Below are positions 1 through 61,498 of a stretch of 64,000 nucleotides of DNA, piece after piece. Made by a program: the position numbers and the translations under genes. Source of the stretch: Candidatus Omnitrophota bacterium (GTDB taxonomy: Bacteria; Omnitrophota; Gorgyraeia; Gygaellales; Profunditerraquicolaceae); NCBI GenBank assembly GCA_028717245.1, contig JAQUOD010000003.1, positions 21,636-85,635 on the forward strand, written 5' to 3'. Within the stretch, counting starts at the first letter, position 1. Every line of letters starts with the position of its first letter. The notes beneath the pieces are model-generated. The model was not told the origin of the DNA, did no database searches, and saw only the letters and a program-made list of their open reading frames with translations.

Positions 1-1
1 T

Positions 2-349
2 GAATTCGGAGGGAATGACTTCTTAAGGAAGATACCTCAGGAAACCACCATAGTTAACGTCAGGGAAATGGTAGAAAAAATCCAGGCAGTAGGCGCTATG
101 GTAGCAGTAGTAGATATCAGCACCGGGCCTTTTCTTGCCGAGTACCGCAAAGGGTTTTCTAAGATATGCAAAGAAAAAGGCGCCATCTTTATCCCCGGCG
201 CCTTAAGCGGTATTATTACCAACCCGCGCTTAAAGAGCGATTTTATCCATCCTAATTGCGACGGATACAAGCTCATCGCCCAGCGCATCTACAAAGCCGT
301 AAGGCCTTATCTGAGTCAGAATAGCCTATTAAGGCAGGCGCAAAAATAA
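2..349 (+). CDS. SGNH/GDSL-family hydrolase, C-terminal part (5' end lies outside window)
   Basis: Frame is open from the window edge to the stop at 349. In-window translation begins EFGGNDFL (GxND block) and ends with a HPNCDGY block, which are typical SGNH hydrolase blocks III and V. Confidence 0.55.
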   Translation, partial: EFGGNDFLRKIPQETTIVNVREMVEKIQAVGAMVAVVDISTGPFLAEYRKGFSKICKEKGAIFIPGALSGIITNPRLKSDFIHPNCDGYKLIAQRIYKAVRPYLSQNSLLRQAQK

Positions 350-367
350 TAAATCCCAAAAATTAAA

Positions 368-450
368 TGCCGGAGAAGGGACTTGAACCCCCATGAGGTT
401 GCCCTCGGCAGCTTTTGAGGCTGCTGCGTCTGCCATTCCGCCACTCCGGC
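368..450 (-). tRNA. tRNA-Leu (anticodon CAA), type II tRNA with long variable arm, 83 nt, CCA not encoded
   Basis: Reverse complement folds as a cloverleaf: acceptor GCCGGAG/CTCCGGC, anticodon stem GCAGC/GCTGC with loop CTCAAAA (anticodon CAA), long variable arm, T-loop GGGGGTTCAAGTCCC. Confidence 0.85.
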
Positions 451-459
451 AATATTTAG

Positions 460-488
460 TTGACGCAAGCTATTTTATATTCTAAAAT
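460..488 (+). promoter_or_regulatory. Sigma70-like promoter for tRNA-Ala (TTGACG - 17 nt - TAAAAT) overlapping a 9-bp perfect palindrome GCTATTTTA...TAAAATAGC
   Basis: Hexamers and spacing read directly from sequence; sits 25 nt upstream of tRNA-Ala. Confidence 0.45.
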
Positions 489-2028
489 AGCACAGGTCAA
501 CAGAATAATTATGGGGCTGTAGCTCAGCTGGGAGAGCACTTGCATGGCATGCAAGGGGTCGAGGGTTCAAATCCCTCCAGCTCCACCAAGAGTGATAGGG
601 TGCTGCTTCAAGGAGAGGACGGAAGGTACCTTCCGTCGAAAAATTGAGGCGGCGCTCTTTTAAAATACAGTTCGAACCAATCTTTTTCAGAAATTCTTTC
701 TGGGATTCTAAATTTCCCCCTCGAATCGCATAACTTCCCTCATTCAAGGTAGTTACAAAGCGCCTGGCCTGTTCGAACCTATTATTACCCTCATCTGCAA
801 AATCTCCCGCTTTTTCCTGTAAATCTTTCTTTAAGCACACTAATTCATTCTTCTTAAGGTTATATTCTTCAAGAGACAGGGAGCCTTGTAGGTAGAGGTC
901 TATAAGCTTGCTTATCTTTGCGTCTATTTCGTTAATCTTAGCCTTGAGATTTTGCAGATGAGTATGTGATGATTGGCTGAAGCGTTCCTTATCTTTTTCA
1001 AGTTCCCTTAAAATATTCTCCAGCCAATCATCACGTAAAGAAACTTTTTGAATGTATTCCTGTATCTGATGCGCCAGCGCTTCCTCACGCACAAACTTTT
1101 GACTTGTGCCTTTGCAGGGAGTGAGTTTTCTGGTGCAGTGGTAATAATGATGGCCTTTCTGGATTTCTGCCGTAACCGTTGCACCGCAAACCCCGCAACG
1201 CATTAGTCCCTTAAAGACAAAATACTTTGTGTTTTTGCTTTGCGGTTTGCCGCGCTGGCGCATCACTATTTGCACTCGGTCAAAAAGTTTCTTGGTAATA
1301 ATGGGTTCATGCTTACCCTCAAAGTGTTCGCCCCAATAAGAGAGGAGTCCATAGTAGAAAGGATTAGTGAGTATCTGCTGGCACTTGCTTATTCTCAACT
1401 TATTTCCCATCTGGGTGGCAAAGCCGAGGGCGTTAATAGTATCGGTTAATCGCTCTAAGGTGTAGTTACCTGTTGCATATAACTCAAACATCTTTCTAAG
1501 TAATGGAGCCTTATTCTTATCTACTACAACTGTCCTTGTCTTAGTATCGTTCAAATAGCCGACTGGCGCGGGACCGGAATAGATACCGTTTCTGATCTTC
1601 TGCCTAATGCCTCGCTTAATATTCTCTGAAAGGTTATCCACATAGTATTTGCTTTGGCCAAAGGCAATAGAGAGCATAAACTTGCCTTGAGCGGTGTTAT
1701 CAAAACGGTAAGTGGGAAATTTTAAGTCCTTAATAACTTCCTTATCAACCAAATAGATTATTTTCCCGCCATCCATAGAATTCCGCGCCAGTCGGTCAGG
1801 ATGCCAAGAAAGTATGCCCTCGGCTTTGCCATGTTCAAGTAGAGAGATCATCTCATTGAATATAGGCCGGCCAGGCGCTTTAGCTGTTCGGGATTCGATA
1901 AACTCCCGGACAATCTCTAATCTTTCCTTCTTAGCGTACTCTAGCGTTTCAGTAATCTGAGCTTGAATAGAAAGAATTTGTCGGTCTTCTTCATCAGTGG
2001 ACTTACGGGCATAGAGAAAGTAACGCAT
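475..2028 (-). CDS. Large serine recombinase (resolvase/invertase N-terminal catalytic domain, recombinase domain, zinc ribbon, coiled coil); C-terminal ~65 aa are encoded by the inverted repeat and the antisense of tRNA-Ala
   Basis: N-terminus YARKSTDEEDRQ..SIQAQ is the serine-recombinase catalytic motif with the Ser nucleophile. CGVCG...HYYHC zinc ribbon and a long K/E-rich coiled coil follow. GGAGG-like RBS (ggaggtttttatgcgt) precedes the start. Confidence 0.85.
   Translation of the reverse strand: MRYFLYARKSTDEEDRQILSIQAQITETLEYAKKERLEIVREFIESRTAKAPGRPIFNEMISLLEHGKAEGILSWHPDRLARNSMDGGKIIYLVDKEVIKDLKFPTYRFDNTAQGKFMLSIAFGQSKYYVDNLSENIKRGIRQKIRNGIYSGPAPVGYLNDTKTRTVVVDKNKAPLLRKMFELYATGNYTLERLTDTINALGFATQMGNKLRISKCQQILTNPFYYGLLSYWGEHFEGKHEPIITKKLFDRVQIVMRQRGKPQSKNTKYFVFKGLMRCGVCGATVTAEIQKGHHYYHCTRKLTPCKGTSQKFVREEALAHQIQEYIQKVSLRDDWLENILRELEKDKERFSQSSHTHLQNLKAKINEIDAKISKLIDLYLQGSLSLEEYNLKKNELVCLKKDLQEKAGDFADEGNNRFEQARRFVTTLNEGSYAIRGGNLESQKEFLKKIGSNCILKERRLNFSTEGTFRPLLEAAPYHSWWSWRDLNPRPLACHASALPAELQPHNYSVDLCYFRI
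513..588 (+). tRNA. tRNA-Ala (anticodon GGC), 76 nt with encoded CCA
   Basis: GGGGCTGTAGCTCAGCTGGGAGAGC...GGTTCAAATCCC...CTCCACCA; anticodon stem CTTGC/GCAAG with loop ATGGCAT; G3:U70 alanine identity pair present. Confidence 0.9.
583..673. repeat. Left copy of perfect ~90-bp inverted repeat; its first 6 nt are the CCACCA 3' end of tRNA-Ala
   Basis: Reverse complement of 583-673 matches 2143-2232 base for base in manual comparison (possible 1-nt indel). Confidence 0.85.
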
Positions 2029-2068
2029 AAAAACCTCCTTGTAGGGGAAATTTAGAATCCAGCCATTT

Positions 2069-2096
2069 AATTTTGAGCTTCCGATTGCTCAAAATT
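2069..2096. promoter_or_regulatory. Perfect 10-bp-arm palindrome AATTTTGAGC-n8-GCTCAAAATT in the recombinase 5' region (candidate operator)
   Basis: Read directly from sequence; lies between the recombinase start (2028) and inverted repeat copy B. Confidence 0.4.
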
Positions 2097-2142
2097 AAAT
2101 GACAAAAAGATTGGTGAAACTTGTCCTTGGCGAAGCCAAGGA

Positions 2143-2232
2143 GAACTGTATTTTAAAAGAGCGCCGCCTCAATTTTTCGACGGAAGGTACCTTCCGTCCT
2201 CTCCTTGAAGCAGCACCCTATCACTCTTGGTG
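2143..2232. repeat. Right copy of the ~90-bp inverted repeat (reverse complement of 583-673); its end (cttggtgg) is an inverted copy of the tRNA 3' end
   Basis: Manual alignment; an additional shorter inverted pair exists at 705-721 / 2044-2060. Confidence 0.85.
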
Positions 2233-2643
2233 GTGCGTATTGGAGAAAGTTAGAACCTGCCTCCAACACTCGCAGTTAAAATAATTTTAATCTATGTCAA
2301 TGCTCCGCGCGCGGAGCGCGCTTCCGTATCTCCCGTGCACCGTTCGGCTTTGCTGGGGCAAAGCCTCACTTGGCGTTCGCTTGGCCGCTCACTTCTTGCT
2401 AATTTTTAAGCGTGTTCGGCTCGTCTTGCGGCTGGCGGCTGGGTGCGGGCAGCCGCCAGCCACTTGCGTCCAAATCAATTAGTTTATAAGAACGTTTTGT
2501 CCGCCTCCCGCCTTCAACACTCTAAAATACAGCTACGAGGCGGGATGCAAAGCCTCTCCCAAACAATGCTTGAGAAACGCAAGCAAAATTTTGGTGCGGG
2601 CAAAATTTTGCCAAAAGAAAACCGATATTTCAAGGAATGGAAA
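2225..2643. repeat. Left copy of ~418-bp GC-rich, hairpin-dense inverted repeat flanking the R-M island
   Basis: Reverse complement aligns with 8936-9352 over its full length with scattered substitutions. Contains the palindromes GCTCCGCGCGCGGAGC and GGCAAAATTTTGCC and 8-12 bp perfect hairpins. Confidence 0.8.
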
Positions 2644-2743
2644 TGCTATGAATTTGATTGCTATGTTGATTAAAAGTGTTAAAATAAGGCATAACAATAG
2701 TGTTTATAAAGTAGTAATATCATAGTAGCTATAATGTAGCATA

Positions 2744-2953
2744 TTGTCAAGCAAAATGTTCGATAAAAGATTAAAACAATTAAGAAAGAAAGCTGGCTGG
2801 TCTCAGCAGAGATTAGCAGAAAAGGCCGGTTTATCTTATAACGTTATAACTAAGATCGAGCAAGGAGCAGCTAAGAATCCAAATATTCAAACTATGATTA
2901 AACTCGCTAATGCTTTTCAGATTAGCTTAGATGATCTTGTGGGCAGAAAGTAA
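2744..2953 (+). CDS. XRE-family helix-turn-helix regulator, controller (C-protein)-like; TTG start at 2744 or ATG at 2756
   Basis: 69 aa; LKQLRKKAGWSQQRLAEKAGLSYNVITKIEQG is a classical HTH_3 motif. Lies at the head of the methyltransferase operon; TATAAT at 2730-2735. Confidence 0.75.
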   Translation: MSSKMFDKRLKQLRKKAGWSQQRLAEKAGLSYNVITKIEQGAAKNPNIQTMIKLANAFQISLDDLVGRK

Positions 2954-3045
2954 TTGACAAAAGTAAATTTCTATGGTAAGGTATATCCACAATCAGGTAA
3001 AAGTGGTATGTTCGAAGGGGGAACTGCCACGTTAAAATAATTAAA

Positions 3046-3074
3046 ACCTTCGCTCAAAAGCGAAGGTTTTTTGT
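3046..3074 (+). terminator. Rho-independent terminator (ACCTTCG-loop-CGAAGGT + TTTTTTG) placed between the regulator gene and the first methyltransferase gene
   Basis: 7-bp GC-containing stem followed by a T tract, 8 nt before the ATG at 3082. Preceded by TTGACA (2944-2949) with TGgTAAGGT as an extended -10. Confidence 0.5.
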
Positions 3075-3081
3075 TTATACT

Positions 3082-4152
3082 ATGCGCTATTACGGTTGTA
3101 AAAACAGACTTTTGGATTTTCTTGAAGAAGGAGTTGCAAAAACTGGCATTAACCATGGGTCCAGTTTTTGCGACTTATTCAGCGGGACTACTGTTGTCGC
3201 GCAGCATTTCAAAAGAAAAGGGTTTACTGTTTTTACAAATGATATTATGGAATTTTCATATGCTATTGCTAGAACATATATCAAAAATAATCAATATCCA
3301 TTTTTTAAAGGTTTAAAAGGCCAAGTTATTGGAGTTAATGGTTGTAGAGAAAATATTATAAGAGTAATCGAGCACCTAAATAGCCTTCCGCCATCAAAAG
3401 GCTTTATCTACAATAATTATTGTCCCTCCGGTTCAAAAAATGGACCACATCAAAGGCAATATTTTTCTGATGAAAATGGTAAGAAAATAGATGCGATTCG
3501 TTCTGTAATTCAAGTTTGGAAAGAAGCAGAACTAATAAGCCTTGATGAATTTTATATTCTTTTATCTTCCTTGTTAGAAGCTGTGCCTTTTGTAGCAAAT
3601 ATTTCCGGTAATTATGCGGCTTTTTTGAAGTGTTGGGATCCCAGGGCGTTGAAGCCTTTAAAATTAAGAGTGCCTGTAATACCGCCGAGCAAAAGAAAAA
3701 ATAAAGTGTTTAAAGGCGATGCTAATGAACTGATAAAAAAATTGTCGTGTGATATCCTTTATATGGATCCACCGTATAATGAAAGGCAGTATGCCCCAAA
3801 TTATTTTATGCTCGAACTAATCGCTGAAGGTTGGTTTAACGGCGATAAGCCTCAAATATATGGAAAAACTGGCATGAGGCCATATGAGAATCAGAAGTCT
3901 TCATATTGCCAAAAGGTGAATGTCAAAATTACTTTTAAGGATTTAATAGAAAATGCCGATACTAAATATATGCTTCTAAGCTATAACGATGAAGGGTTAA
4001 TGAACGAAGAGGAAATAGTTGATGTTTTGTCATCCAGAGGAAGAGTAAGGATTCTTGAGCGAGATCATCGCAGGTATAAAAGCATAAATCAGGCTGAAAC
4101 GGATAGGCGCATAGTCAAAGAAAAGTTATATTTTGTTAAGGTGGCGAGATAA
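3082..4152 (+). CDS. DNA adenine (N6) methyltransferase, D12/Dam-like class
   Basis: N-terminal MRYYGCKNRLL (D12-class AdoMet motif) and YMDPPYNE (DPPY catalytic motif IV) at about aa 228; 356 aa. Confidence 0.8.
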   Translation: MRYYGCKNRLLDFLEEGVAKTGINHGSSFCDLFSGTTVVAQHFKRKGFTVFTNDIMEFSYAIARTYIKNNQYPFFKGLKGQVIGVNGCRENIIRVIEHLNSLPPSKGFIYNNYCPSGSKNGPHQRQYFSDENGKKIDAIRSVIQVWKEAELISLDEFYILLSSLLEAVPFVANISGNYAAFLKCWDPRALKPLKLRVPVIPPSKRKNKVFKGDANELIKKLSCDILYMDPPYNERQYAPNYFMLELIAEGWFNGDKPQIYGKTGMRPYENQKSSYCQKVNVKITFKDLIENADTKYMLLSYNDEGLMNEEEIVDVLSSRGRVRILERDHRRYKSINQAETDRRIVKEKLYFVKVAR

Positions 4153-4961
4153 TGGCAGAAAAGTTGAATAAATTAAACGGTGGAACCTGGCTCCAATACT
4201 CTTTCAGTATTTGGCGAGATGTCCAAAAAAACCAGGAAGAATGGAAATTAAAGCATCCCGCCATGTTCCCGATAAAACTGGCAGAACGCTTAATTGAGAT
4301 ATACACAAATAAACCGAATCAAATAGTTCTAGACCCATTTATGGGTAGCGGTAGCGTAATGATTGCTGCTCAAGCTATGAAAATGAAAGGTGTTGGTTTT
4401 GAGATAAACAAGGAATATTGCGGCATGGCTAAAAAGAGGTTAGAAGAAACATACAAAAGCATGTTTAGTGAAGACAATTCTACAATTTACTGTGACTCGT
4501 CTTTAAATATTAAAAAATACTTGGCGTCTGATTTCGTGGATTTAACGGTTACTTCACCGCCCTATTGGGATATCCTAAATCGTAAAAGGACAGCAGACAA
4601 AAAAGAGATTCAAAATTATAGTGATTCTAAAGACGATTTCGGGAATATTCCAAGCTATGAAGATTTCTTAGCTTCATTACAAAAAGTTTTTAAGGAAGTC
4701 TATGATGTTACAAAGCCAAAGCGTTTTTGTATAGTAGTTGTGATGGATATTAGAAAAAATTCTACATTGTATCAGTTGCATTCGGATTTAACTAGGAAAA
4801 TGGAAGAAATAGGTTTTTGTTTAAATGATATTATTATTTGGGATAGACAAAAAGAATATAACAATATGCGTCCACTTGGATATCCGTATTCTTTTATCGT
4901 AAATAAAGTGCACGAATATATATTGATTTTTAAGAAACCAGACATCCAAAAGGAGAAATAA
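4152..4961 (+). CDS. DNA methyltransferase of the N4/N6 (PF01555-like) family, SPPY type (possibly N4-cytosine); motif order X-I-IV
   Basis: HPAMFPIKLAERLI...VLDPFMGSGS matches the conserved H-P-x-x-K/FP...LDPFxGSGT block of DpnA-like methyltransferases but sits at the N-terminus. TSPPYW catalytic motif at about aa 135. Start overlaps the upstream stop (translational coupling). Confidence 0.75.
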   Translation: MAEKLNKLNGGTWLQYSFSIWRDVQKNQEEWKLKHPAMFPIKLAERLIEIYTNKPNQIVLDPFMGSGSVMIAAQAMKMKGVGFEINKEYCGMAKKRLEETYKSMFSEDNSTIYCDSSLNIKKYLASDFVDLTVTSPPYWDILNRKRTADKKEIQNYSDSKDDFGNIPSYEDFLASLQKVFKEVYDVTKPKRFCIVVVMDIRKNSTLYQLHSDLTRKMEEIGFCLNDIIIWDRQKEYNNMRPLGYPYSFIVNKVHEYILIFKKPDIQKEK

Positions 4962-4965
4962 AACA

Positions 4966-5895
4966 ATGTCGACATTTTTAGACCCGGATATGGCTTATCT
5001 GCTAGGTTTAATTGTTGGAAGAGGAACGATGAGAGAGGTAAGCGGTATGAGGCAGCTGGTTATTGATTATCCGTTTCGGAGCTTGGAAGCAAAAGGGATC
5101 AAGAAATCATTTGATACCAAGGACAAGATATTATTAAGTTTAGATGATACTATAAATCGCCTTGGAGAATTAACAGAAGTTACACCAAAGAAGGTACAAT
5201 TAAAAAATTCCGTAAGCATAATCATTGAATCAACCAAAAATTCTTTGCTTTGGCGCAATATTAATAAATTGCTCCAAGGAAAAACAAGTTTTAGGGAAAT
5301 GGAAGTACCGGAAATTATCTTTGGAGCAGAAGAAGAAATAAAAAAAGAGTTCCTTAGAGGTATCGCTGATGTGACTGGCTCTATTGGTACTGGTGGGCGA
5401 GATCAAGCTGGTAGGCACAGGGTTTATATCTCGATTTTAAACGAAAACTGGAAATTACCGGTACAAATTTGTAACCTGCTCCAGAGTGAACCGTTAATAA
5501 TACCTGTGAATACTATAGACTGGGGCCATCCTAACATTCGAAATGGCCATGCCAAGGAATACCATGAAGGGCGAGAGCAAGCTTGGGCTAGAGAGCACCA
5601 ATTAAAGGTTTACGCTGAATATTTTGAGCCAGTGGGTTTCAGGATTATTCATAAAAATGAAATTCTGAAAGAATTAGCAGAATATAATAAATTATATTTC
5701 TCCGGTAGAAAAGCAAAGCTGTGCATGCCCGAAAGAAAGAGGCAGAGGCAAAGAGGTATTCACCCCGAAGAAAATTCTGATAAATTACCGCGAGAGTTGA
5801 AGGGTAAGCATTGCGATACTTATTGGCAGGTTTGTTTGGAGCTTGGCTGTAAACAATCCGACAAAGAGAAAACTCTTTTTCAAGAAAAGGAATAA
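4966..5895 (+). CDS. Hypothetical protein with two degenerate LAGLIDADG-like motifs (YLLGLIVGRGT, FLRGIADVTGS) ~120 aa apart plus a His/Cys-rich C-terminal domain; candidate specificity/endonuclease component of the R-M system
   Basis: The motifs keep the hydrophobic/glycine framework of LAGLIDADG but lack the catalytic acidic residue (R and T instead). The gene position directly after two methyltransferases is where Type II restriction genes normally sit. Confidence 0.35.
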   Translation: MSTFLDPDMAYLLGLIVGRGTMREVSGMRQLVIDYPFRSLEAKGIKKSFDTKDKILLSLDDTINRLGELTEVTPKKVQLKNSVSIIIESTKNSLLWRNINKLLQGKTSFREMEVPEIIFGAEEEIKKEFLRGIADVTGSIGTGGRDQAGRHRVYISILNENWKLPVQICNLLQSEPLIIPVNTIDWGHPNIRNGHAKEYHEGREQAWAREHQLKVYAEYFEPVGFRIIHKNEILKELAEYNKLYFSGRKAKLCMPERKRQRQRGIHPEENSDKLPRELKGKHCDTYWQVCLELGCKQSDKEKTLFQEKE

Positions 5896-6387
5896 ATGTA
5901 TTCATCAGAAAAGGAATTATACCCAGAGATAATAAAATGGCTCGAAAAGTATCTTGAAGGTAAGTATCCTAAAGCCGAAATAAAAGCTTACGATACTTCC
6001 CGGCAAGATTTATCAGAGTTTCTGAGGCACCATAAACTACATTCATTTTTTCCTGAGTTCGAAACATATGTTATTAAAATTGATATCACTGCTTCTATAA
6101 AACATAAAGATAAGTGCGATTTAGCTTTTGTCGAATGTAAGCTAAATTCCATCAATCTAAATGACATATCTCAGCTATTAGGTTACTCAAGGGTTGTTAG
6201 GCCTAGGCATTCCTTTATTATCTCTCCAAATACTATTAGCGCTCCCGTTAGTACCTTAATAAAAATATTTAAACGATATGATATTTTAGATTACGCGACG
6301 GGCGCTCGAATTAGAATCGCCCAGTGGAATAAAATAACTCAAGGAATAGATATTTCGACCTTATTGCCACCGGGTGAGCATTTATAA
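5896..6387 (+). CDS. Small PD-(D/E)xK nuclease-like protein (163 aa); candidate catalytic endonuclease subunit
   Basis: KIDITASIKHKDKCDLAFVECKL gives a D...(17 aa)...E-C-K arrangement, preceded by an N-terminal glutamate-containing helix. Start codon abuts the previous stop (aaggaataaATG). Confidence 0.45.
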   Translation: MYSSEKELYPEIIKWLEKYLEGKYPKAEIKAYDTSRQDLSEFLRHHKLHSFFPEFETYVIKIDITASIKHKDKCDLAFVECKLNSINLNDISQLLGYSRVVRPRHSFIISPNTISAPVSTLIKIFKRYDILDYATGARIRIAQWNKITQGIDISTLLPPGEHL

Positions 6388-6451
6388 ATTTCTAAGGATG
6401 CTTATTTTGGAAATGTTCCAATAACCGGAAACGGCCCGAAGGATTTAAGTC

Positions 6452-7882
6452 ATGGAACAACAAACAGAATTACAAGAGCTAAAACCTTGCCCTTCATGCG
6501 GAACTATGCTGCCGTATGACAAATGGCTTAAGGTAGTAGGTGTTTATGAAGAACAGCAAAAACACAGGAAACAGCTCGAGCAAGAACTTTCTAAAGCAAA
6601 AGAGCAAAGCCAAAAACTTAAAGAGGAATACAAAAACGTCAGAGAAAAAGAGAAACAATTAAAAAATCAATACTTGCAAAAAATAAAAGACAGTCGAGCA
6701 CAAGTTAAAGAAACACAAGGGAGATTAAAAAACAAAGAGCGTCTCTTAAAATCAGAACTTAAACAGAAATTTAACTTGCGAGAAGAAAAACTCCAATCTA
6801 GATTTGAAAAAGATAAACAAACAGCATTAAATCGGATCAGAAAAGAAGGGATAAGAATTGGCTCAGAAAAAGAGAAAATAAAAGCAGAAAAACTTAAAAA
6901 TGATATAGAGAAATTAAAAAAAGAACAAGTAGATGCTAAGGCAAAACTTAAAGAGAAATTTCAGAAAGAGCAAGAAAGAATTAAGCGTAAATTAGAAAGA
7001 GAAAAACATAAAGAACAGAAGCAGATTCGTCAAGATGGCATAAAGACGGGAATGGATAAACAAAGAGCGAGGACAGAGAAGGTAAGCCAAATGGCTGAGA
7101 AATATCGAAAAGCAAGAGATGAAGCAATTGAGAAAGCTAAGCAGCTTGAGGAAATGATAAAAAAAGGCACAACGCCACAGATAGAGGGTCTTGATTTTGA
7201 GCATGAGTTAGCTAATCAACTCAAACAGAAATTTCCAGAAGATGAAATAAAACCAACGGGACGAAAAGGTGATATTATTCAGACAGTGCAAGCGGAAAGC
7301 AAGAAGATCGGGAAGATTATTTATGAGTGTAAAAAGACCAAAGAATTTCAGAATCAATTCATAGAACAAATTCGACGCGATAAAGCTAGAGTAATTGCAG
7401 ACCATGGGATAATCGTTACTTGGGCTACCAAAGAAGACAGGCGGGGTTTTTGGGTCGAAGGCGATATAATTATAGTTCATCCCTATGGAGTTTTGGATAT
7501 GGCAACATTCCTTCGAGAAACATTACTACAGATGTATGCGCTTAAATTATCAAAGTCAGAATTTGAAACTAAAGGTAAGGCCATACTTGAATTTATGCAA
7601 TCCGAAGAATTTAGGACCCGAATTCAAGATTCTATTACGAAAAGTAAAGAAGCCTATGATATTTTGAAAAAGGAAGTCAAAACACATATGAATACTTGGA
7701 AAAAGAGATTCAAAATATACGAGGGAATCCATAGAAATACTAGCATTATTCAGAATACGGTTCGTTACGTGTTGCTTCACGGTAAAATTCCGGAGAAACT
7801 TCCTGAGGCAAAAGAACTCCCAGCTTTACCTCTATCAATGGAAACAACAGGAAATAAGTCCAGGCCTATTTTAGAGACATAA
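6452..7882 (+). CDS. Zinc-ribbon / long coiled-coil / C-terminal PD-(D/E)xK-like protein, resembles the DUF2130 family
   Basis: N-terminal CPSCG...Y, ~190 aa K/E-rich heptad-like region, then GDIIQTVQ...GKIIYECKK (D...E-x-K); 476 aa. Confidence 0.4.
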   Translation: MEQQTELQELKPCPSCGTMLPYDKWLKVVGVYEEQQKHRKQLEQELSKAKEQSQKLKEEYKNVREKEKQLKNQYLQKIKDSRAQVKETQGRLKNKERLLKSELKQKFNLREEKLQSRFEKDKQTALNRIRKEGIRIGSEKEKIKAEKLKNDIEKLKKEQVDAKAKLKEKFQKEQERIKRKLEREKHKEQKQIRQDGIKTGMDKQRARTEKVSQMAEKYRKARDEAIEKAKQLEEMIKKGTTPQIEGLDFEHELANQLKQKFPEDEIKPTGRKGDIIQTVQAESKKIGKIIYECKKTKEFQNQFIEQIRRDKARVIADHGIIVTWATKEDRRGFWVEGDIIIVHPYGVLDMATFLRETLLQMYALKLSKSEFETKGKAILEFMQSEEFRTRIQDSITKSKEAYDILKKEVKTHMNTWKKRFKIYEGIHRNTSIIQNTVRYVLLHGKIPEKLPEAKELPALPLSMETTGNKSRPILET

Positions 7883-7953
7883 ATGTCGATTTTCATTTTT
7901 TCTTTATAGCGGGAACTTGCTTTAAAGATAATTTCTCAATTCTTTTCATTCAT

Positions 7954-19382: not shown

Positions 19383-19650
19383 GTTATTTAAGTAACCAGT
19401 ATAATAGAAACAGTTTCCGATGCAATCGGGAACTGTACCTGTTTTAAGATAGGAACTGTACTTTTTAGCGGATGGCTTGGCTTGGTTTCGAGCAGGGCGT
19501 TTGCAGGCCGAGCGGGCACGGTTCCCCCGCTATTAAATTATCTATGCGAATAATAGACGCTTTCCGAGGTAATCGGGAAAGTGTACTTATATCAAGATAG
19601 AAAGTGTACCTTTTAGCGGGTGGCTTGGTTTCAAGCGGGTTTTATATTCA
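19383..19650. repeat. Two tandem ~125-bp direct repeat units, each containing TTCCGA(T/G)G(C/T)AATCGGGAA and a pair of 10-bp direct repeats (GGAACTGTAC / GAAAGTGTAC) followed by TTTAGCGG(A/G)TGGCTTGG
   Basis: Manual alignment of 19420-19520 against 19555-19650. Confidence 0.6.
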
Positions 19651-20160
19651 ATCTGCATGAAATCCTATTCTGCGTTTTGGTTGTTCAGGAGGAGCCATGA
19701 GTTCACGTATGGCTTCGAATACACCCTGTATTTCCGCGTCATGTTTCTCAATCCTTCGTTCCAATTCTTCTAATTTATGAGCCAATTCTTTATGGGTAGA
19801 GAGGATTCGTCTCAGTTTTACAAAAGCACGCATGATGGCTATATTGACCTGTATAGCTCTTTTGCTGCGTAATACGCTGGAAAGCATTGCTACGCCCTGC
19901 TCGGTAAAGGCATACGGCGGATGCCGCCTGCCACCCCAACTTGAAATCACAAATTGTGATTTCAAGTTCTTAAATTCTTCATCTGTTAACTGGAACATGA
20001 AATCTTCGGGGAATCTTTCTATATTGCGTTTTACTGCCTGAATTAGAGCCCTTATTTCTACTCCATAGAGCTTAGCAAGATGAATGCTTAGCATAACTTT
20101 TTGTCCATGTAACAAGAAAATTTTACGCTCAATTATCTCTTCCGGGATTAATTCTTTCAT
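19648..20160 (-). CDS. ORF6N-domain (KilA-N/Bro-N-like) DNA-binding protein, typically mobile-element associated
   Basis: 170 aa; [23 protein letters not shown]...[30 protein letters not shown] is the conserved ORF6N signature. Confidence 0.75.
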
Positions 20161-24249: not shown

Positions 24250-27180
24250 ATGTTGAGCTTTATTAAAAAGCAGCTTTTAAAACAAAAACAAAATATTATC
24301 CGCAAGAAATACCCGGATATTAATATCGTCTTACATGCGGAGATGCCCGCCCCTGCCATAAACAAGATGGTGGAGTTGGCTAAGACCGTTAATATAGTCA
24401 ACAGCCTGGAATCTAAGATAAGCGTTCTTTCCGATGCGCAGTTACGGGAGAAGACGCGGGAATTTAAGGAGCGCCTTCTTGAAAAATCCAAAGAGTATGA
24501 GATGCAGATTAAGGATTTAGAGGAAGCGCTTCTGGCTGTGGCCATACCGGAGGAAAAAGAAAAATTAAAAGAGAAGTTGAAGCTGACGAGAAATAAGACC
24601 TTTGCCCCGGTATTGCCTGAAGCCTTTGCCGTGGCTAGAGAGGCAGCCAGGCGCACGGTAAATATGCGGCATTTTGACGTGCAGATAGCCGGCGGCATAG
24701 TATTGCATGAAGGCAGGATCGCGGAGATGGCCACCGGCGAAGGAAAAACCCTGGTGGCGACGCTGCCGGCGTATCTAAACGCATTATTGGGCCGCGGCGT
24801 ACATATTATTACTGTTAACGATTACCTCGCCCGCAGGGACCGCGAATGGATGGGCCCGATTTATGAATTCTTAGGTTTAAGCGTAGGGGTAATCCAGCAC
24901 GATATGTCGGATGAACAGAGAAAACAGGCTTATGCCTGCGATATCACCTACGGGACAAATAACGAATTCGGTTTTGATTACCTGCGTGATAATATGAAGT
25001 ATAATTTAGAGGACCTGGTGCAGCGGCCTTTTTATTATGCCATTGTGGATGAGGTAGATTCCATATTAATAGATGAGGCGCGCACGCCTTTGATTATTTC
25101 CGGGCCCGCGGAAGAGTCCACCGATAAGTACTATATCATTGACAAGATTATCCCGCGCCTGAAGATAAGGAAGACTTTGGAGAAGGATGAGATTGAGGCA
25201 AAATATAGAGGCGAGGACCTCTCTAAAGGTTTTGACGCGATTGTCGATGAGAAGGCGCATACCGCCCACCTTACCGAGGAAGGAGAGTCCAAGGCCTGCG
25301 CTGTGCTGAATATCGCTAACTTGCATGATATTGAGACTATGGAGTGGCGCCATCATATTATACAGGCGCTGCGCGCGCACCAACTTTACCAGAAAGACGT
25401 GGATTATGTGGTGAAGGATGGCGAAGTAGTGATTGTGGATGAATTCACCGGCCGCATGATGCCCGGCAGGCGCTGGTCAGACGGGCTACATCAGGCAATC
25501 GAGGCAAAAGAGGGCCTGAAGATAGAGCGCGAAAACCAGACCTTAGCCACCATTACTTTTCAAAATTACTTCCGTATGTATGAGAAGCTGGCAGGGATGA
25601 CCGGGACCGCCTTCACCGAAGCAAATGAGTTTAAGAGCATATACCAGCTGGATGTGGTGACTATCCCTACAAATAGTACCCTGATCCGCGCCAATTATTC
25701 TGACTGTATTTATAAAACAGAAAAAGAAAAATTTAATGCTGTGGTGGAGGAAATTGTCCAACTTTACAACTCAGGAAGGCCTGTGCTGGTGGGTACCATT
25801 TCTATAGATAAATCCGAACACCTGGCGGATATGCTTAAAAAGCGCGGTATACCCCATCAGGTGCTTAACGCTAAATACCATGAGATGGAGGCCCAGATTG
25901 TGGCCCAGGCCGGCAGGTATAAGGCTGTAACTATTGCCACCAATATGGCCGGCCGCGGAACGGATATCCTCCTCGGCGGTAATCCGGAATTTATGGCGCG
26001 TAATCTGGCTAAAGAGAAAATAGCTCCTGATGACCCTAGTTACCAGGAAGAATATAAGAAAATATTGGATAGATATAGGAGTGAGACTGACGCAGAGCAT
26101 AAAAAAGTAGTCCAAGCCGGTGGTTTGCATGTGTTAGGCACAGAGCGCCATGAGGCGCGGCGCATTGATAATCAGCTGCGCGGACGTTCCGGCCGCCAGG
26201 GAGACCCTGGTTCGTCAAGATTTTATGTATCATTATGCGATGACCTGATGCGCTTATTCGGCTCAGACCGGCTTATCGGGATTATGGATAAACTCGGCTT
26301 AGAAGAAGGCCAGGTGATTGAACACCCCTGGGTCAGTAAATCCATTGAAATCGCCCAGAGGCGCGTAGAAACCCATAATTTTGAGATTAGAAAACAGCTT
26401 TTGGAATACGACAATGTGATGAATAAACAAAGAGAGGTTATTTACGGCCAGCGCCGCGCAGTATTAGAAGGTACGTTTCTTAAAGAAGACATACTGGCCA
26501 TAATGGATAAGATTATCGCTGATATAGCGGCCTTGCATATAAATGAGAACACCAGCCCCCAGGAATGGGATATCGTTGGCTTGATGAGTATGATCAGGTT
26601 AAAATTCGGCATAGACATTAATACCTCTAAAATACAAAATCTAAATAAAGAAGGCATAAAGGAGGAGTTGTATAATAATCTTGTTGCCGCCTATGAGGGA
26701 AAAGAAAGATCCCTCGGCAGCGAGGCCACGCGTCATTTGGAGCGCATGGTCTTTTTACAGATAATCGACGCCAAATGGAAAGACCACCTTTATGCTATGG
26801 ATAATTTAAGGGAAGGTATTGGCCTGCGCGCTTATGGCCAGCGCGACCCTCTGATAGAATATAAGCGCGAGGCCTTTGAGATGTTTAGCCAGATGGTTTG
26901 CGGTATTGAAGAAGAGGCCATCGAGGCGATCTTTAAAATTCAGCCGGTAAAGCCGGAGAGATTTAGGGGTATATTCAGCCAGGTGAGCCAGGATTTTTTG
27001 CATCCTGAGGCGGCTAAATTCGAAATACCGCCTGAGCAATCAGAATCTGCTGAGCTGACGCCCCAATCTTTTAGCGGGAAAACCTCGGCCATTAAACCGG
27101 CTAAGGCCACCGGTGTCGGCCGAAACGACCCCTGCCCTTGTGGTTCCAAAAAAAAATACAAAAAATGTTGCGGAAGATGA
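24250..27180 (+). CDS. secA: Preprotein translocase ATPase SecA
   Basis: 976 aa; [41 protein letters not shown], and C-terminal zinc motif CPCGS..KYK.CCG. Confidence 0.95.
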
Positions 27181-28691
27181 TTTCGTCGCTAGTCGCTAGT
27201 CGCTGGTCGCTGGTAAAAGATCTCCTCTTATGTTTATTCTCCGCAGGTTTATTCATCTTTTCTTTCCCCAATTTTAATCTCTGGTTATTTGCCTGGTTTG
27301 GGTTTGTGCCTTTGTTTTTTGCTATTCAGGGCAAATCTAAGACTAAGGCATTTTTACTCGCTTATTTGACAGGTTTTATTTTCTGGCTAGGTATTATTTA
27401 TTGGTTAATTCATGTCACTTTTTCCGGTATGTTCGTCTTGGCATTATACCTAGCATTATATTTTGGTATTTTTGGTTTAATCATCAGTACTTACAACTTA
27501 CAACTTACAACTTACAGCTTCTTTTTTATTCCTTCAGCCTGGGTTTTACTGGAGTATGCCCGCAGCCATCTTTTTACCGGCTTTCCCTGGGTGCTCTTAG
27601 GGTATTCGCAGTATCTTAATTTACCGGTTGTCCAGATAGCAGATATTACAGGCGCCTGGGGGGTTTCGTTTCTGGTAATGCTGGTCAATGTGGCGATTTA
27701 TTTAGCTATTAGTCGTTTGTCGTTAGTCGTTAGTGAAAAAAAGAAATATCTCGTGCCGATATTATGTATAATTGTTAGTTTAGGTTACGGATATTATAGA
27801 TTAAACCAACGACCAACGACCAACGACCAACGACCTATTAAGATTTCCGTCATCCAGGGTGATATCCCTCAGGAATTAAAATGGGATAGCCGCTTGAGTA
27901 ATTATATCATAAATAAATACTGGGATATCTCCTTTGCCGCGGCTAGGGAAAAACCGGATTTAATCATCTGGCCGGAGGCAGCGCTGCCGGTAATCGTGGA
28001 AGAAGAGCCTTTTTATTATGAAAGGGCAAAGGACTTAGCCAAAGAAATTAATACGCCCCTGCTTTTAGGCGCGGTTACTTTCAGGGATAATTCTTATTAT
28101 AACAGCGCCCTTTTGCTTTCGAAAGAGGGTGAACTTCTTACCAGGTACGATAAACTACATCTTGTGCCTTTTGGGGAGTATATCCCCTTAAAGAAAACCC
28201 TACGGTTCTTAGAGACAATCGTGCCTATCGGTGATTTTACTCCCGGCAGAGAATATACAGTATTCAACCTACCTGCTAAATTTTCTGTCCTTATTTGTTT
28301 TGAGGATTTATTCCCTGAGATTTCCAGAGAGTTCATAAAAAGAGGCGCTGTTTTCTTAGTCAACATTACTAATGACGCCTGGTTTAAGAAGACAACCGCG
28401 CCATATCAGCATCTGCAGGCCTCGGTATTCCGGGCAGTAGAGAACCGCGTATTTTTAGTGCGCTCTGCAAACACCGGCGTTTCGGGTTTTATCGCTCCGA
28501 CGGGAAAAATTGTTTCTTTGCTCGCGGATAAGGCCGGGAATAATATTTTTGTCCCCGGTTATAAGAGCAGCGAGATTTCTATTTCCGGGTGCGGCCTTAG
28601 TTTTTACAGCCGTTACGGCGATATCTTTATTGCAGCCTGCTTTTTTTTCTTTGTCTTATACGGCATAATTGCCCTTAGGAAGAGGCCATGA
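27176..28691 (+). CDS. lnt: Apolipoprotein N-acyltransferase
   Basis: Polytopic N-terminus followed by a CN-hydrolase domain (E...K...C triad region, [10 protein letters not shown]). ATGA overlap with the secA stop. Carries three in-frame heptamer repeat patches. Confidence 0.85.
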
Positions 28692-60213: not shown

Positions 60214-60303
60214 AGCGGGTGACGCGGGGGATGCCTCGAGGAAAATTTCCTGTCTGCCGGCAGGCAGGGAGAGAGGCTCACTCCGCGGTGAGGACCCGCT
60301 GCC
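60214..60303. repeat. GC-rich palindromic intergenic repeat element, type 1 with a different central insert
   Basis: AGCGGGTGACGCGGGGGATGCCTCGAGGAAAATTT ... CCGCGGTGAGGACCCGCTGCC termini identical to 30418-30490. Confidence 0.75.
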
Positions 60304-60415: not shown

Positions 60416-61498
60416 ATGAAAGAGCGGGTAGCGGTGGCGATGAGCGGCGGCGTGGATTCTTCTGTAGCAGCAGCCTTGTTAAAAAAGCAAGGTTATGAAG
60501 TTATCGGGCTGACTATGTGTTTCAATTTAGCTGATTCTACTACAAAAAGGCCTAATTGCTGCGGTCTAGAGGGAATAGAAGATGCCCGGCGCGTGGCCCA
60601 TAAATTAGGGATAAGGCATTATGTCTTGAATTTCAGCAAAGTTCTGAAAGAAAAGGTCATCGCGGATTTCTGCCGGGAATATTTAAGAGGCAGGACACCC
60701 AACCCTTGCGTAAGGTGCAACCAGTTTATAAAATTTGATGCCTTGTTGAAAAAGGCCCTCTCCTTAGACGCTGGGTTTCTGGCTACCGGACACTATGCGC
60801 GCATAGAAAAAGTCGTTAGTCGTCAGTCGCTAGTCGTTAGTTATTTACTAAAGAAAGCTAAGGACAAAAAGAAAGATCAGTCTTATTTTTTATATTGTTT
60901 AGGCCAAAAGCAATTAAGGCGCATACTTTTTCCTTTAGGGGATTATACGAAGGAGGAAGTGAGGAATTTAGCCAGGAAATTTAATTTACCCATCGCGGAT
61001 AAATTAGCCAGCCAGGAGATATGTTTTCTCCCGGATGCGGATTATCGTAGGTTTTTAAATACGCACGCTAAGGCAAAGATAAAGCCCGGCCCCATACTGG
61101 ATAAAGAAGGCAATGTATTGGGCCAGCATCAGGGGGTCGCTTTTTATACTATCGGACAGCGTGAAGGATTAGGTATTGCCAGGGGTTATCCTTTATACGT
61201 GATAGAAATAAACCCCGGAAATCGCAGCATAATAGTAGGTAAGAAAGAGGATGTGTATAAGGATGAGTTTTATCTTAAGAATACGCATTTTATCATCGGT
61301 CTTAAGAAAAAGAAGGTTGCCCTAAGAGTAAAGATAAGGTATAATCACCCCGAAGCGCAAGCACAGGTTATAGTTACGGGACGCAAGGTAAAAGTCAAGT
61401 TTAGTAAACCCCAGTTTGCCGTTACTCCGGGCCAATCCGCAGTATTTTATGATCATGATACGGTCGTAGGCGGCGGAGTCATCGGTAAAGTTTTATAA
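60416..61498 (+). CDS. mnmA: tRNA-specific 2-thiouridylase
   Basis: VAMSGGVDSSVAA PP-loop, catalytic Cys residues. Contains a 35-nt heptamer tandem repeat at 60811-60845. Confidence 0.9.
   Translation: MKERVAVAMSGGVDSSVAAALLKKQGYEVIGLTMCFNLADSTTKRPNCCGLEGIEDARRVAHKLGIRHYVLNFSKVLKEKVIADFCREYLRGRTPNPCVRCNQFIKFDALLKKALSLDAGFLATGHYARIEKVVSRQSLVVSYLLKKAKDKKKDQSYFLYCLGQKQLRRILFPLGDYTKEEVRNLARKFNLPIADKLASQEICFLPDADYRRFLNTHAKAKIKPGPILDKEGNVLGQHQGVAFYTIGQREGLGIARGYPLYVIEINPGNRSIIVGKKEDVYKDEFYLKNTHFIIGLKKKKVALRVKIRYNHPEAQAQVIVTGRKVKVKFSKPQFAVTPGQSAVFYDHDTVVGGGVIGKVL

Follow-up and report, generated by a model that had tools for sequence, protein, structure and literature searches.

In one clade of uncultured Omnitrophota, the gene for apolipoprotein N-acyltransferase (lnt) keeps up to five non-triplet tandem-repeat arrays at fixed positions in its coding sequence. 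These arrays are described here from a window, meaning the whole 64,000-nucleotide stretch of Candidatus Omnitrophota bacterium DNA that was analyzed (GenBank assembly GCA_028717245.1, contig JAQUOD010000003.1, positions 21,636 to 85,635 of the forward strand), and from the orthologous genes of relatives. The arrays are old and common to the whole clade, and do not represent a recent event in a single gene. In the account that we favor, and to which we give roughly an even chance of being right, they are self-perpetuating coding microsatellites in length-constrained loops, maintained by slippage together with templated conversion, with a filter that keeps the reading frame open. Outside phase-variable surface genes, non-triplet tandem repeats are normally rare and short-lived in bacterial genes; here they persist in a core envelope enzyme past the saturation of synonymous sites.

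Lnt is a housekeeping inner-membrane enzyme, essential in E. coli. The coding sequence in the window runs from 27165 to 28691 on the forward strand, and its product joins an LNT_N membrane domain (PF20154, 1.3e-38) to a CN_hydrolase domain (PF00795, 5.1e-32) in Pfam, is homologous to the solved Lnt structures of E. coli and P. aeruginosa (5vrg/5n6h, matched at ~2e-49), and matches MDD4980214.1, a protein of a ‘Candidatus Omnitrophica bacterium’ metagenome-assembled genome (MAG), at 100% identity. We place the start at 27165, at a conserved MLRKM (ATG TTG CGG AAG ATG); the NCBI model, P0001, begins at 27177 instead. The gene thus overlaps secA by 16 nt (27165-27180), with its start falling within the codons for the C-terminal CCGR of the SecA zinc-binding motif, and the first array begins 5 nt past the secA stop. 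A look-up of the exact SecA sequence of the window returned no match. Lnt has eight transmembrane (TM) helices, cytoplasmic N and C termini, and a nitrilase domain between H7 and H8 (PMC5500888).

Tandem Repeats Finder (TRF) and exact-run scans locate four heptamer arrays and a 1.4-unit vestige of a fifth in the window’s lnt, all on the forward strand; as head-to-tail short units of high identity, the arrays are simple sequence repeats (SSRs), or microsatellites. Slot 1 (27185-27212) consists of GTCGCTA x2 and GTCGCTG x2 (+GTA) and lies in the N-terminal cytoplasmic tail, in the same alignment column (c25/26) as in orthologues. Slot 2 (27489-27520), ACTTACA x4.6, falls in the cytoplasmic TM4-TM5 loop, where it aligns to E. 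coli Lnt residues ~116-125 and to a gap between model helices 85-107 and 114-134. Slot 3 (27709-27734) is TAGTCGT x3.7, with TTGTCGT as its second unit, and occupies the cytoplasmic TM6-TM7 loop (model gap 184-190). The perfect ACCAACG x4.4 of slot 4 (27805-27835), approximately the reverse complement of slots 1 and 3, encodes part of the periplasmic stretch that links TM7 and the nitrilase domain. Slot 5 (28269-28278) is found in a short state of 1.4 units, CTACCTGCTA, in a loop of the nitrilase domain, where relatives have exactly three extra units. These placements (tail, H4-H5, H6-H7, linker, and nitrilase-domain loop) derive from the E. coli alignment together with the helix boundaries of an AlphaFold model of low confidence (predicted local distance difference test score, pLDDT, of 58), from which nothing but those boundaries was taken.

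An earlier note on this DNA had described three heptamer patches in lnt, in both orientations. All three are present as described (slots 1, 3, and 4), and the orientations are right as well: once reverse-complemented, AGTCGTT differs at a single base from a rotated form of ACCAACG, and the same is true of GTCGCTG. The count of three was too low, having passed over the ACTTACA array and the vestige at slot 5. The note’s proposal of a topology check, to see whether the patches map to loops, finds a favorable answer at the confidence that the model allows, since they appear to map to the N-terminal tail, TM loops, and the linker. Its judgment that the patches are not due to chance also holds, as the scan (≥4 copies, ≤2 mismatches) recovers four arrays of period 7 against none in 30 Markov shuffles; no array passing the same thresholds in the window was found at periods 6 or 8-12.

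Units of 7 and 8 nt are not multiples of three and sit in frame in the lnt open reading frame (ORF), so that a change of one unit shifts the frame. The arrays bear marks of this constraint. In slot 1, the A>G variant unit abolishes an in-frame TAG (CGC TGG, not CGC TAG), and in slot 3 the unit TTGTCGT abolishes another, with TTG in its place. Among consensus units, 14% would create a sense-strand stop, against 40.5% expected for random heptamers, while 56% would create one on the antisense strand. With sense-stop units depleted or patched, the arrays are filtered by selection for an open frame.

The arrays overwrite existing loop-coding DNA, since slot lengths equal those of an array-free sister clade and are close to those of the E. 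coli Lnt loops, slot 3 being ~5 amino acids longer. The earlier note’s suggestion of insertion therefore fails for lnt, and for leuS too, where an array replaces a loop of equal length. Presence or absence of an array does not change the length of any of the five slots; length changes of that kind come only with composite structures, described below, at slot 1 (L089, L092; L numbers are our labels for loci of relatives) and slot 3 (L105), and with a 20-nt palindrome.

Aligned with one another, 35 Lnt proteins of Omnitrophota (60-73% identity) show peptides with a seven-residue period in the same places but with differing sequences, SPITYHL for example, and 98 of 120 orthologous Lnt proteins carry at least one, mostly at the five positions. 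For counts at the DNA level, we used 33 non-redundant orthologous lnt genes of the array clade. They contain 79 arrays, 69 of 7-mers and 10 of 8-mers, with a median of 31 nt and 4.4 copies and a maximum of 5.1 copies; 47 of the 79 are perfect. Array starts share alignment columns in every lineage (c25/26, c164-166, c259-262, c333/334, and c532-534), so that the comparison with Lnt orthologues recommended in the earlier note yields the same five columns across the clade. Unit sequences vary by slot and lineage; period, position, and length are what is conserved. The note’s description of the mechanism as sequence-specific finds no support, given that units differ almost completely between lineages.

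Array density reaches 1.415/kb in lnt of the array clade, 52 times the 0.027/kb of the flanks on the same contigs (332 kb). It is 0 in lnt of the sister clade, whose Lnt is 42-57% identical to the window’s, 0.011/kb in the sister-clade flanks, and 0.0098/kb in 1.1 Mb of other phyla. The distant control set came from an Lnt profile search of contigs, the matches listed being ≤52% identical and mostly from other phyla. The excess over the flanks makes the phenomenon essentially lnt-specific and not a genome-wide repeat bias: of 86 arrays in clade loci, 77 lie inside lnt, several of those outside are also coding, and intergenic DNA is nearly free of arrays. Arrays of the CTATNCG family also occur in more distant Omnitrophota Lnt (~47% identity), at slot 2 of L004 (6188-6224) and slot 4 of L126 (10549-10562), and the slots may thus predate the clade analyzed here.

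This distribution distinguishes the arrays from known bacterial heptamer families, namely GGGNATC of Xanthomonas and Nostoc, for which ~4 units are preferred (PMC4692102), TAACTGA of Beggiatoaceae (PMC4679880), and the cyanobacterial STRR. The likeness is that period 7 specifically is enriched. Those families, however, each have one genome-wide unit, are mainly intergenic, and are under-represented in ORFs, whereas the lnt arrays share no single unit, differ by slot and lineage, lie in frame, and fall almost entirely within one gene. Our literature searches, which included heptanucleotide repeats in Omnitrophota, brought up no earlier account of a pattern confined to one gene in this way; the literature searched does not describe the combination of positions conserved in a housekeeping gene of a deep clade, fixed length, lineage-specific units, and paired complementarity.

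Units at the same slot are related in phase across lineages, one or two bases apart. For instance, slot 4 has the in-phase series ACCAACG/ACCATCG/ACCTACG/ACCTGCG/ACCTACA/ACCTATC/ACCAAAC/ACCGAAC, and slot 2 has CTATCGA/CTATCCG/CTATCAA/CTACGAA/CTTACAA. Where an array contains two variants, like units are adjacent (AABB), as in slot 1 of the window, slot 1 of L081, and slot 4 of L082, L095, and L106. Copy number changes too, and in whole units. Slot 5 measures 51 nt in four lineages, that of the window among them, and 72 nt in most others, which is 1.4 versus 4.4 units, exactly three units or 21 nt more; slot 2 of L096 and several slot-3 alleles are ~21 nt shorter. Such changes between relatives, at slot 5 and at slot 4 of L131, place the arrays among variable-number tandem repeats (VNTRs) and support expansion, which the earlier note had proposed, as well as contraction.

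Two of ~37 distinct lnt sequences, compared at the DNA level, are frameshifted exactly at arrays, and elsewhere the frame is open through the arrays. In L131 (318-342), the frame shifts within the slot-4 array, which lacks one unit, and there is a nonsense codon in the conserved PYQHLQ motif besides, which makes this lnt probably a pseudogene. In L136 (575-632), the frame shifts at the slot-3 arrays, and no further stop follows up to the contig end. The truncated Lnt homologues P0013, P0041, P0103, and P0104 were considered as slot-1 frameshifts and rejected: their genes are intact, slot 1 is short or decayed in them, and the gene caller set the start too late.

A further property is that some arrays within one gene are complementary. 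On the coding strand, slots 1 and 3 are G+T-rich, and slots 2, 4, and 5 are C+A-rich. In the window, slots 3 and 4 are predicted to form an imperfect duplex (27712-27831, forward strand) with 6 bp and one mismatch per unit, which encloses the segment encoding TM7; the fold of 27700-27845 reaches -36.4 kcal/mol (z = -4.0), and 0 of 200 shuffles were as good. Slots 3 and 4 co-vary as reverse complements. Over 20 representative lineages, the duplex between them averages -18.2 kcal/mol within lineages versus -12.5 kcal/mol between lineages (0 of 20,000 permutations, p < 5e-5). The best complementary partner of an array within its gene is another array in 30 of 64 cases, where 4.4 would be expected, and in L166 both paired arrays are 8-mers. 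The antisense-strand duplex is stronger than the sense duplex (-32.7 versus -23.0, p = 4e-4), the mismatches in the sense strand being A.C and not G.U, and the A.C mismatches might stem from the avoidance of stops in the sense strand. Selection for sense-mRNA pairing is therefore unsupported as a candidate explanation.

Complementarity is also built into single slots. Composite hairpins, in which an array and an inverted array flank a spacer, occur at slot 1 (L089, L092), slot 3 (L105, L136), and slot 5 (L081, L094), and in intergenic DNA after an M23 peptidase gene. One of these, (ATAGCGT)n-spacer-(CTATCCG/CTAAACG)n, is found both 3' of the M23 gene and as an extra in-frame block of ~60 nt in lnt slot 1; its sites are L081 12085-12160, L089 4333-4400 and 2180-2270, and L092 1778-1860. 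The sharing of composites between lnt and intergenic DNA suggests a dispersed family of array-armed hairpins.

Outside lnt, the window has two further heptamer arrays, both on the forward strand: GACCAAC x4.9 in the editing domain of leuS (11371-11404) and AGTCGTT x4.4 in mnmA (60811-60841). The leuS array belongs to the slot 4 unit family and yields the same seven-residue peptide cycle, as the earlier note had said of its third patch; it is missing from LeuS orthologues, whose variable loop at that place has equal length. The mnmA array belongs to the slot 3 family, and its unit AGTCGTC yields CAG in place of TAG. Each window array whose perfect form would place a TAG in frame (those of slot 1, slot 3, and mnmA) is patched at exactly that base, to TGG, TTG, and CAG, respectively. 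Five of the six window heptamer arrays (lnt slots 1, 3, and 4, leuS, and mnmA) form one ACCAACG family with 0-1 mismatch in either orientation, which upholds the earlier claim that the motif is reused in unrelated genes; five arrays of one family in this genome would arise by chance at ~6e-7, by our own estimate from mismatch counts and not as the output of a tool. A search with a 200-residue LeuS fragment returned, among the matches listed, only proteins under 350 residues, several of them on contigs of more than 100 kb; either the search itself may favor short proteins, or gene callers may split leuS in many assemblies.

In the LptE lipoprotein, the signal peptide carries an array of a different kind, with 8/16-nt units (TTATTGGA/GTTATTGG; 15631-15681, forward strand), in which LLDYWVIGLLGCWIIGLAGC duplicates a lipobox-like LxGC. 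The LptE orthologue of L109 has a heptamer array at the same spot, and a second lipoprotein signal peptide of L109 has one as well (L109 192-221, 17425-17447). Substrates of the Lnt pathway, therefore, carry arrays too.

How might such arrays arise and last? On the microsatellite account, the loop slots would be free in peptide sequence and constrained in length. Replication slippage and transient misalignment would perpetuate the arrays and homogenize their units, with copy number stepping by one unit and only 1.4-2 and 4.4-5.1 copies being both in frame and tolerated. Slippage is directly supported, because whole-unit changes occur, and heptanucleotide SSRs are described as the most over-represented class of long bacterial SSRs, an excess for which polymerase slippage was put forward (Mrazek et al. 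2007, cited in both PMC4679880 and PMC4692102). Template switching at inverted repeats that lie close together might in addition copy one array onto another in the opposite orientation, which would explain both the complementary pairs and the clustering within one gene. We infer this second component from the covariation of slots 3 and 4 and from the composites. The outcome would be hypervariable loop peptides and occasional frameshifted (OFF) alleles. In work by Ripley and by the Lovett laboratory on point and cluster mutations in E. coli reporters, quasipalindrome template switching reportedly corrects nearby imperfect inverted repeats toward complementarity; a process of this kind would yield the covariation and the composites without any function. 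It is not known to maintain paired tandem arrays in a gene over the long term.

Several observations weigh against this account. A purely mutational process leaves the 52-fold density in lnt, and the near absence of arrays from intergenic DNA, unaccounted for. Tracts prone to slippage typically vary in copy number, whereas the arrays scarcely do and never exceed 5.1 copies, and one-unit steps imply non-functional intermediates of a gene that E. coli cannot do without. Replacement of units looks punctuated rather than like drift: at 0.6-0.8 identity of four-fold sites, units at the same slot are identical in 9 of 36 comparisons and unrelated in 14 of 36. Some units are more conserved than synonymous sites, and the slot 2 unit CTATCCG is identical in L088 and L109 despite saturated four-fold sites (0.39 identity). 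The pairing partner varies, being slots 1 and 4 or 3 and 4 in the window, 1 and 2 in L081, L082, L086, and L166, and 2 and 5 in L101 and L093. Across all pairs of arrays, complementarity tested by shuffling slot sequences among lineages gives p = 0.18, the pairing of slots 3 and 4 alone being robust. Finally, all sequences compared are metagenome assemblies. The singling-out of lnt, the ceiling near five copies, and the over-conserved units lie outside the microsatellite model, and for that reason three rivals remain: phase variation, a functional hairpin, and mobile hairpins.

The best placed of these, which we consider possible though improbable, is that lnt is an adaptive contingency locus. 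Selection would keep the arrays, and gain or loss of one unit would switch Lnt OFF and ON, toggling lipoproteins between diacyl and triacyl forms. Non-triplet arrays of high purity within an ORF, one of them placed directly after the start codon, have the right form, and an enrichment confined to one gene suggests selection at the level of that gene. Likewise, the two frameshifts fall exactly at arrays, with L136 otherwise intact over the part covered by its contig, and the two states of slot 5 are those to be expected had slippage proceeded step by step by way of OFF intermediates. Precedent exists in neuO of the E. coli K1 prophage CUS-3, where a heptanucleotide VNTR, AAGACTC, in the 5' coding region leaves the gene ON only if the repeat number is divisible by 3 (PMC13001214). 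The two systems share a tandem 7-nt coding unit, a seven-residue cycle from three units, a frame set by copy number modulo 3, and slippage by whole units. Beyond this the likeness breaks down. The accessory, surface-modifying neuO has a single strain-variable tract of 3-53 copies, with 65.6% of genomes OFF (PMC13001214), whereas lnt, a housekeeping membrane enzyme gene, has up to five tracts, none of them in the range of long, rapidly switching repeats and all near-invariant in number across lineages. Arrays are identical in three independent assembly pairs, slot positions are conserved across a deep clade with lineage-specific units, and the arrays pair by complementarity. Five switches in one gene would be unusual, the enzyme is essential in E. 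coli, and phase variation does not predict the covariation of slots 3 and 4. As for L131, its nonsense codon means that it may be a simple pseudogene.

Rather doubtful, in our estimation, is a reading in which nucleic-acid structure is what is selected. Each array would supply an arm of an extended, imperfectly paired hairpin, formed in RNA or in single-stranded DNA, and such hairpins would control expression of lnt relative to secA, which it overlaps. They could do so as RNase III sites, by pausing translation, or by way of an antisense transcript, with the tandem form being only the way in which the arms are built. The stable fold and covariation of slots 3 and 4, the frequency with which arrays are mutual best partners, the composites at slots 1, 3, and 5 and after the M23 gene, and the systematically stronger antisense duplex all favor it. 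A selected structure sits poorly, however, with a partner array that is not conserved between lineages, with the many arrays that have no partner at all (slot 2 of the window, for example), and with the null result over all pairs. The sense-RNA mismatches are A.C rather than G.U, for which avoidance of sense stops could suffice, and a hairpin does not need tandem periodicity.

Less probable still is a gene-targeted process of templated repeat-writing, or short-patch conversion, which would overwrite lnt slots with cassettes of ~31 nt made of 7- or 8-mers and copied between slots in either orientation. It may act occasionally on lipoprotein signal peptides and other loops. Such a process would account for the 52-fold specificity, the fixed length, the punctuated replacement, the recurring units, and the coordinated change of slots 3 and 4.

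We regard as equally improbable the proposal that the arrays derive from tiny mobile elements, hairpins with heptamer-array arms that insert in frame and for which lnt loops are preferred or tolerated targets, a form of the active insertion that the earlier note had suggested. Its appeal lies in recurrence. The unit CTATCCG is found at slots 1, 2, and 4 across seven loci, one of them in the sister clade; different genomes have the (ATAGCGT)n-spacer-(CTATCCG)n hairpin in lnt slot 1 and in intergenic DNA that follows the M23 gene; and the unit of lnt slot 4 recurs in the leuS array, in a place where LeuS orthologues have no array. The punctuated evolution of units fits as well, and a separate 20-nt palindrome clearly does insert into arrays. 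Yet the slots are fixed in place and in length and agree in both with relatives that lack arrays, units at the same slot are related in phase by descent, and homology of flanks and target-site duplications are absent. A Pfam scan of 28 of the ~57 window genes found no transposase, of the Y1 type or other, and no reverse transcriptase, and the tandem-repeat nature of the arrays is unlike the variable regions of diversity-generating retroelements.

The separate palindrome, CCTGCCTGCCGGCAGGCAGG, is perfect over 20 nt, encodes LPAGRQ if in frame, and is dispersed over Omnitrophota loci (L098 1745, L099 3481, L104 2241/2402/10253, L105 10253, L110 2548/3032, L102 2840, L109 7000, L114 8106, L126 5786, and L141 691). 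At least six copies are 21-nt in-frame insertions between heptamer units of lnt, one of them with a further nested hairpin, and a one-mismatch copy lies in the window upstream of mnmA (60249-60268). Target-site duplications flanking the palindrome were sought, and none was consistent. It looks like a tiny mobile element of the repetitive extragenic palindrome (REP) or small dispersed repeat (SDR) type that favors arrays. Elhai et al. (2008, Genome Res 18:1484) reportedly described SDRs inserted in tandem heptamer repeats of Nostoc, which CCTGCCTGCCGGCAGGCAGG recalls in standing between heptamer units in several relatives; the likeness is one of description, the phylum and the sequence being different and the Omnitrophota insertions being in frame within a coding region.

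Chance or assembly artefact can be dismissed: although all the data are metagenome assemblies, shuffles yield 0 arrays against 4 observed, the 52-fold enrichment holds across 33 loci, the frame is open through the arrays in all but two genes, and the arrays are identical between independent assemblies (L082 and L083, L095 and L097, L106 and L107), which excludes the artefact that the earlier note had allowed for.

What the arrays mean depends on whether they are tolerated or selected, a choice that is directly testable on existing metagenome reads. If merely tolerated, they offer a clean natural system in which to measure concerted evolution, slippage, and template switching in bacteria. If selected, they would point to lipoprotein triacylation that is phase-variable or to a new form of intragenic structural regulation in a poorly known phylum; and gene-targeted repeat-writing, if true, would diversify or regulate one housekeeping gene in a manner not described before. 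In either case, peptides with a seven-residue period in MAG proteins can be phenomena of the DNA, which serves as a warning in their interpretation.

Other features of the window deserve brief mention. A replication origin or terminus near lnt was considered and ruled out, as GC skew is positive over the whole window. A protein with an ORF6N/Rha-type phage regulatory domain (19648-20160) is encoded by a lone minus-strand gene between those for MurJ and UvrC. Near the start of the window, a large serine recombinase (475-2028, minus strand) adjoins tRNA-Leu (367-451, minus strand) and tRNA-Ala (513-588), and is followed by a D12-class N6-adenine methyltransferase, an N4/N6 methyltransferase, DUF2130, and ORFs that have no Pfam match. 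GC content drops to 0.355 at 4-8 kb, within this recombinase and methyltransferase region, and positions 1-9000 are probably an integrated mobile element with a modification system.

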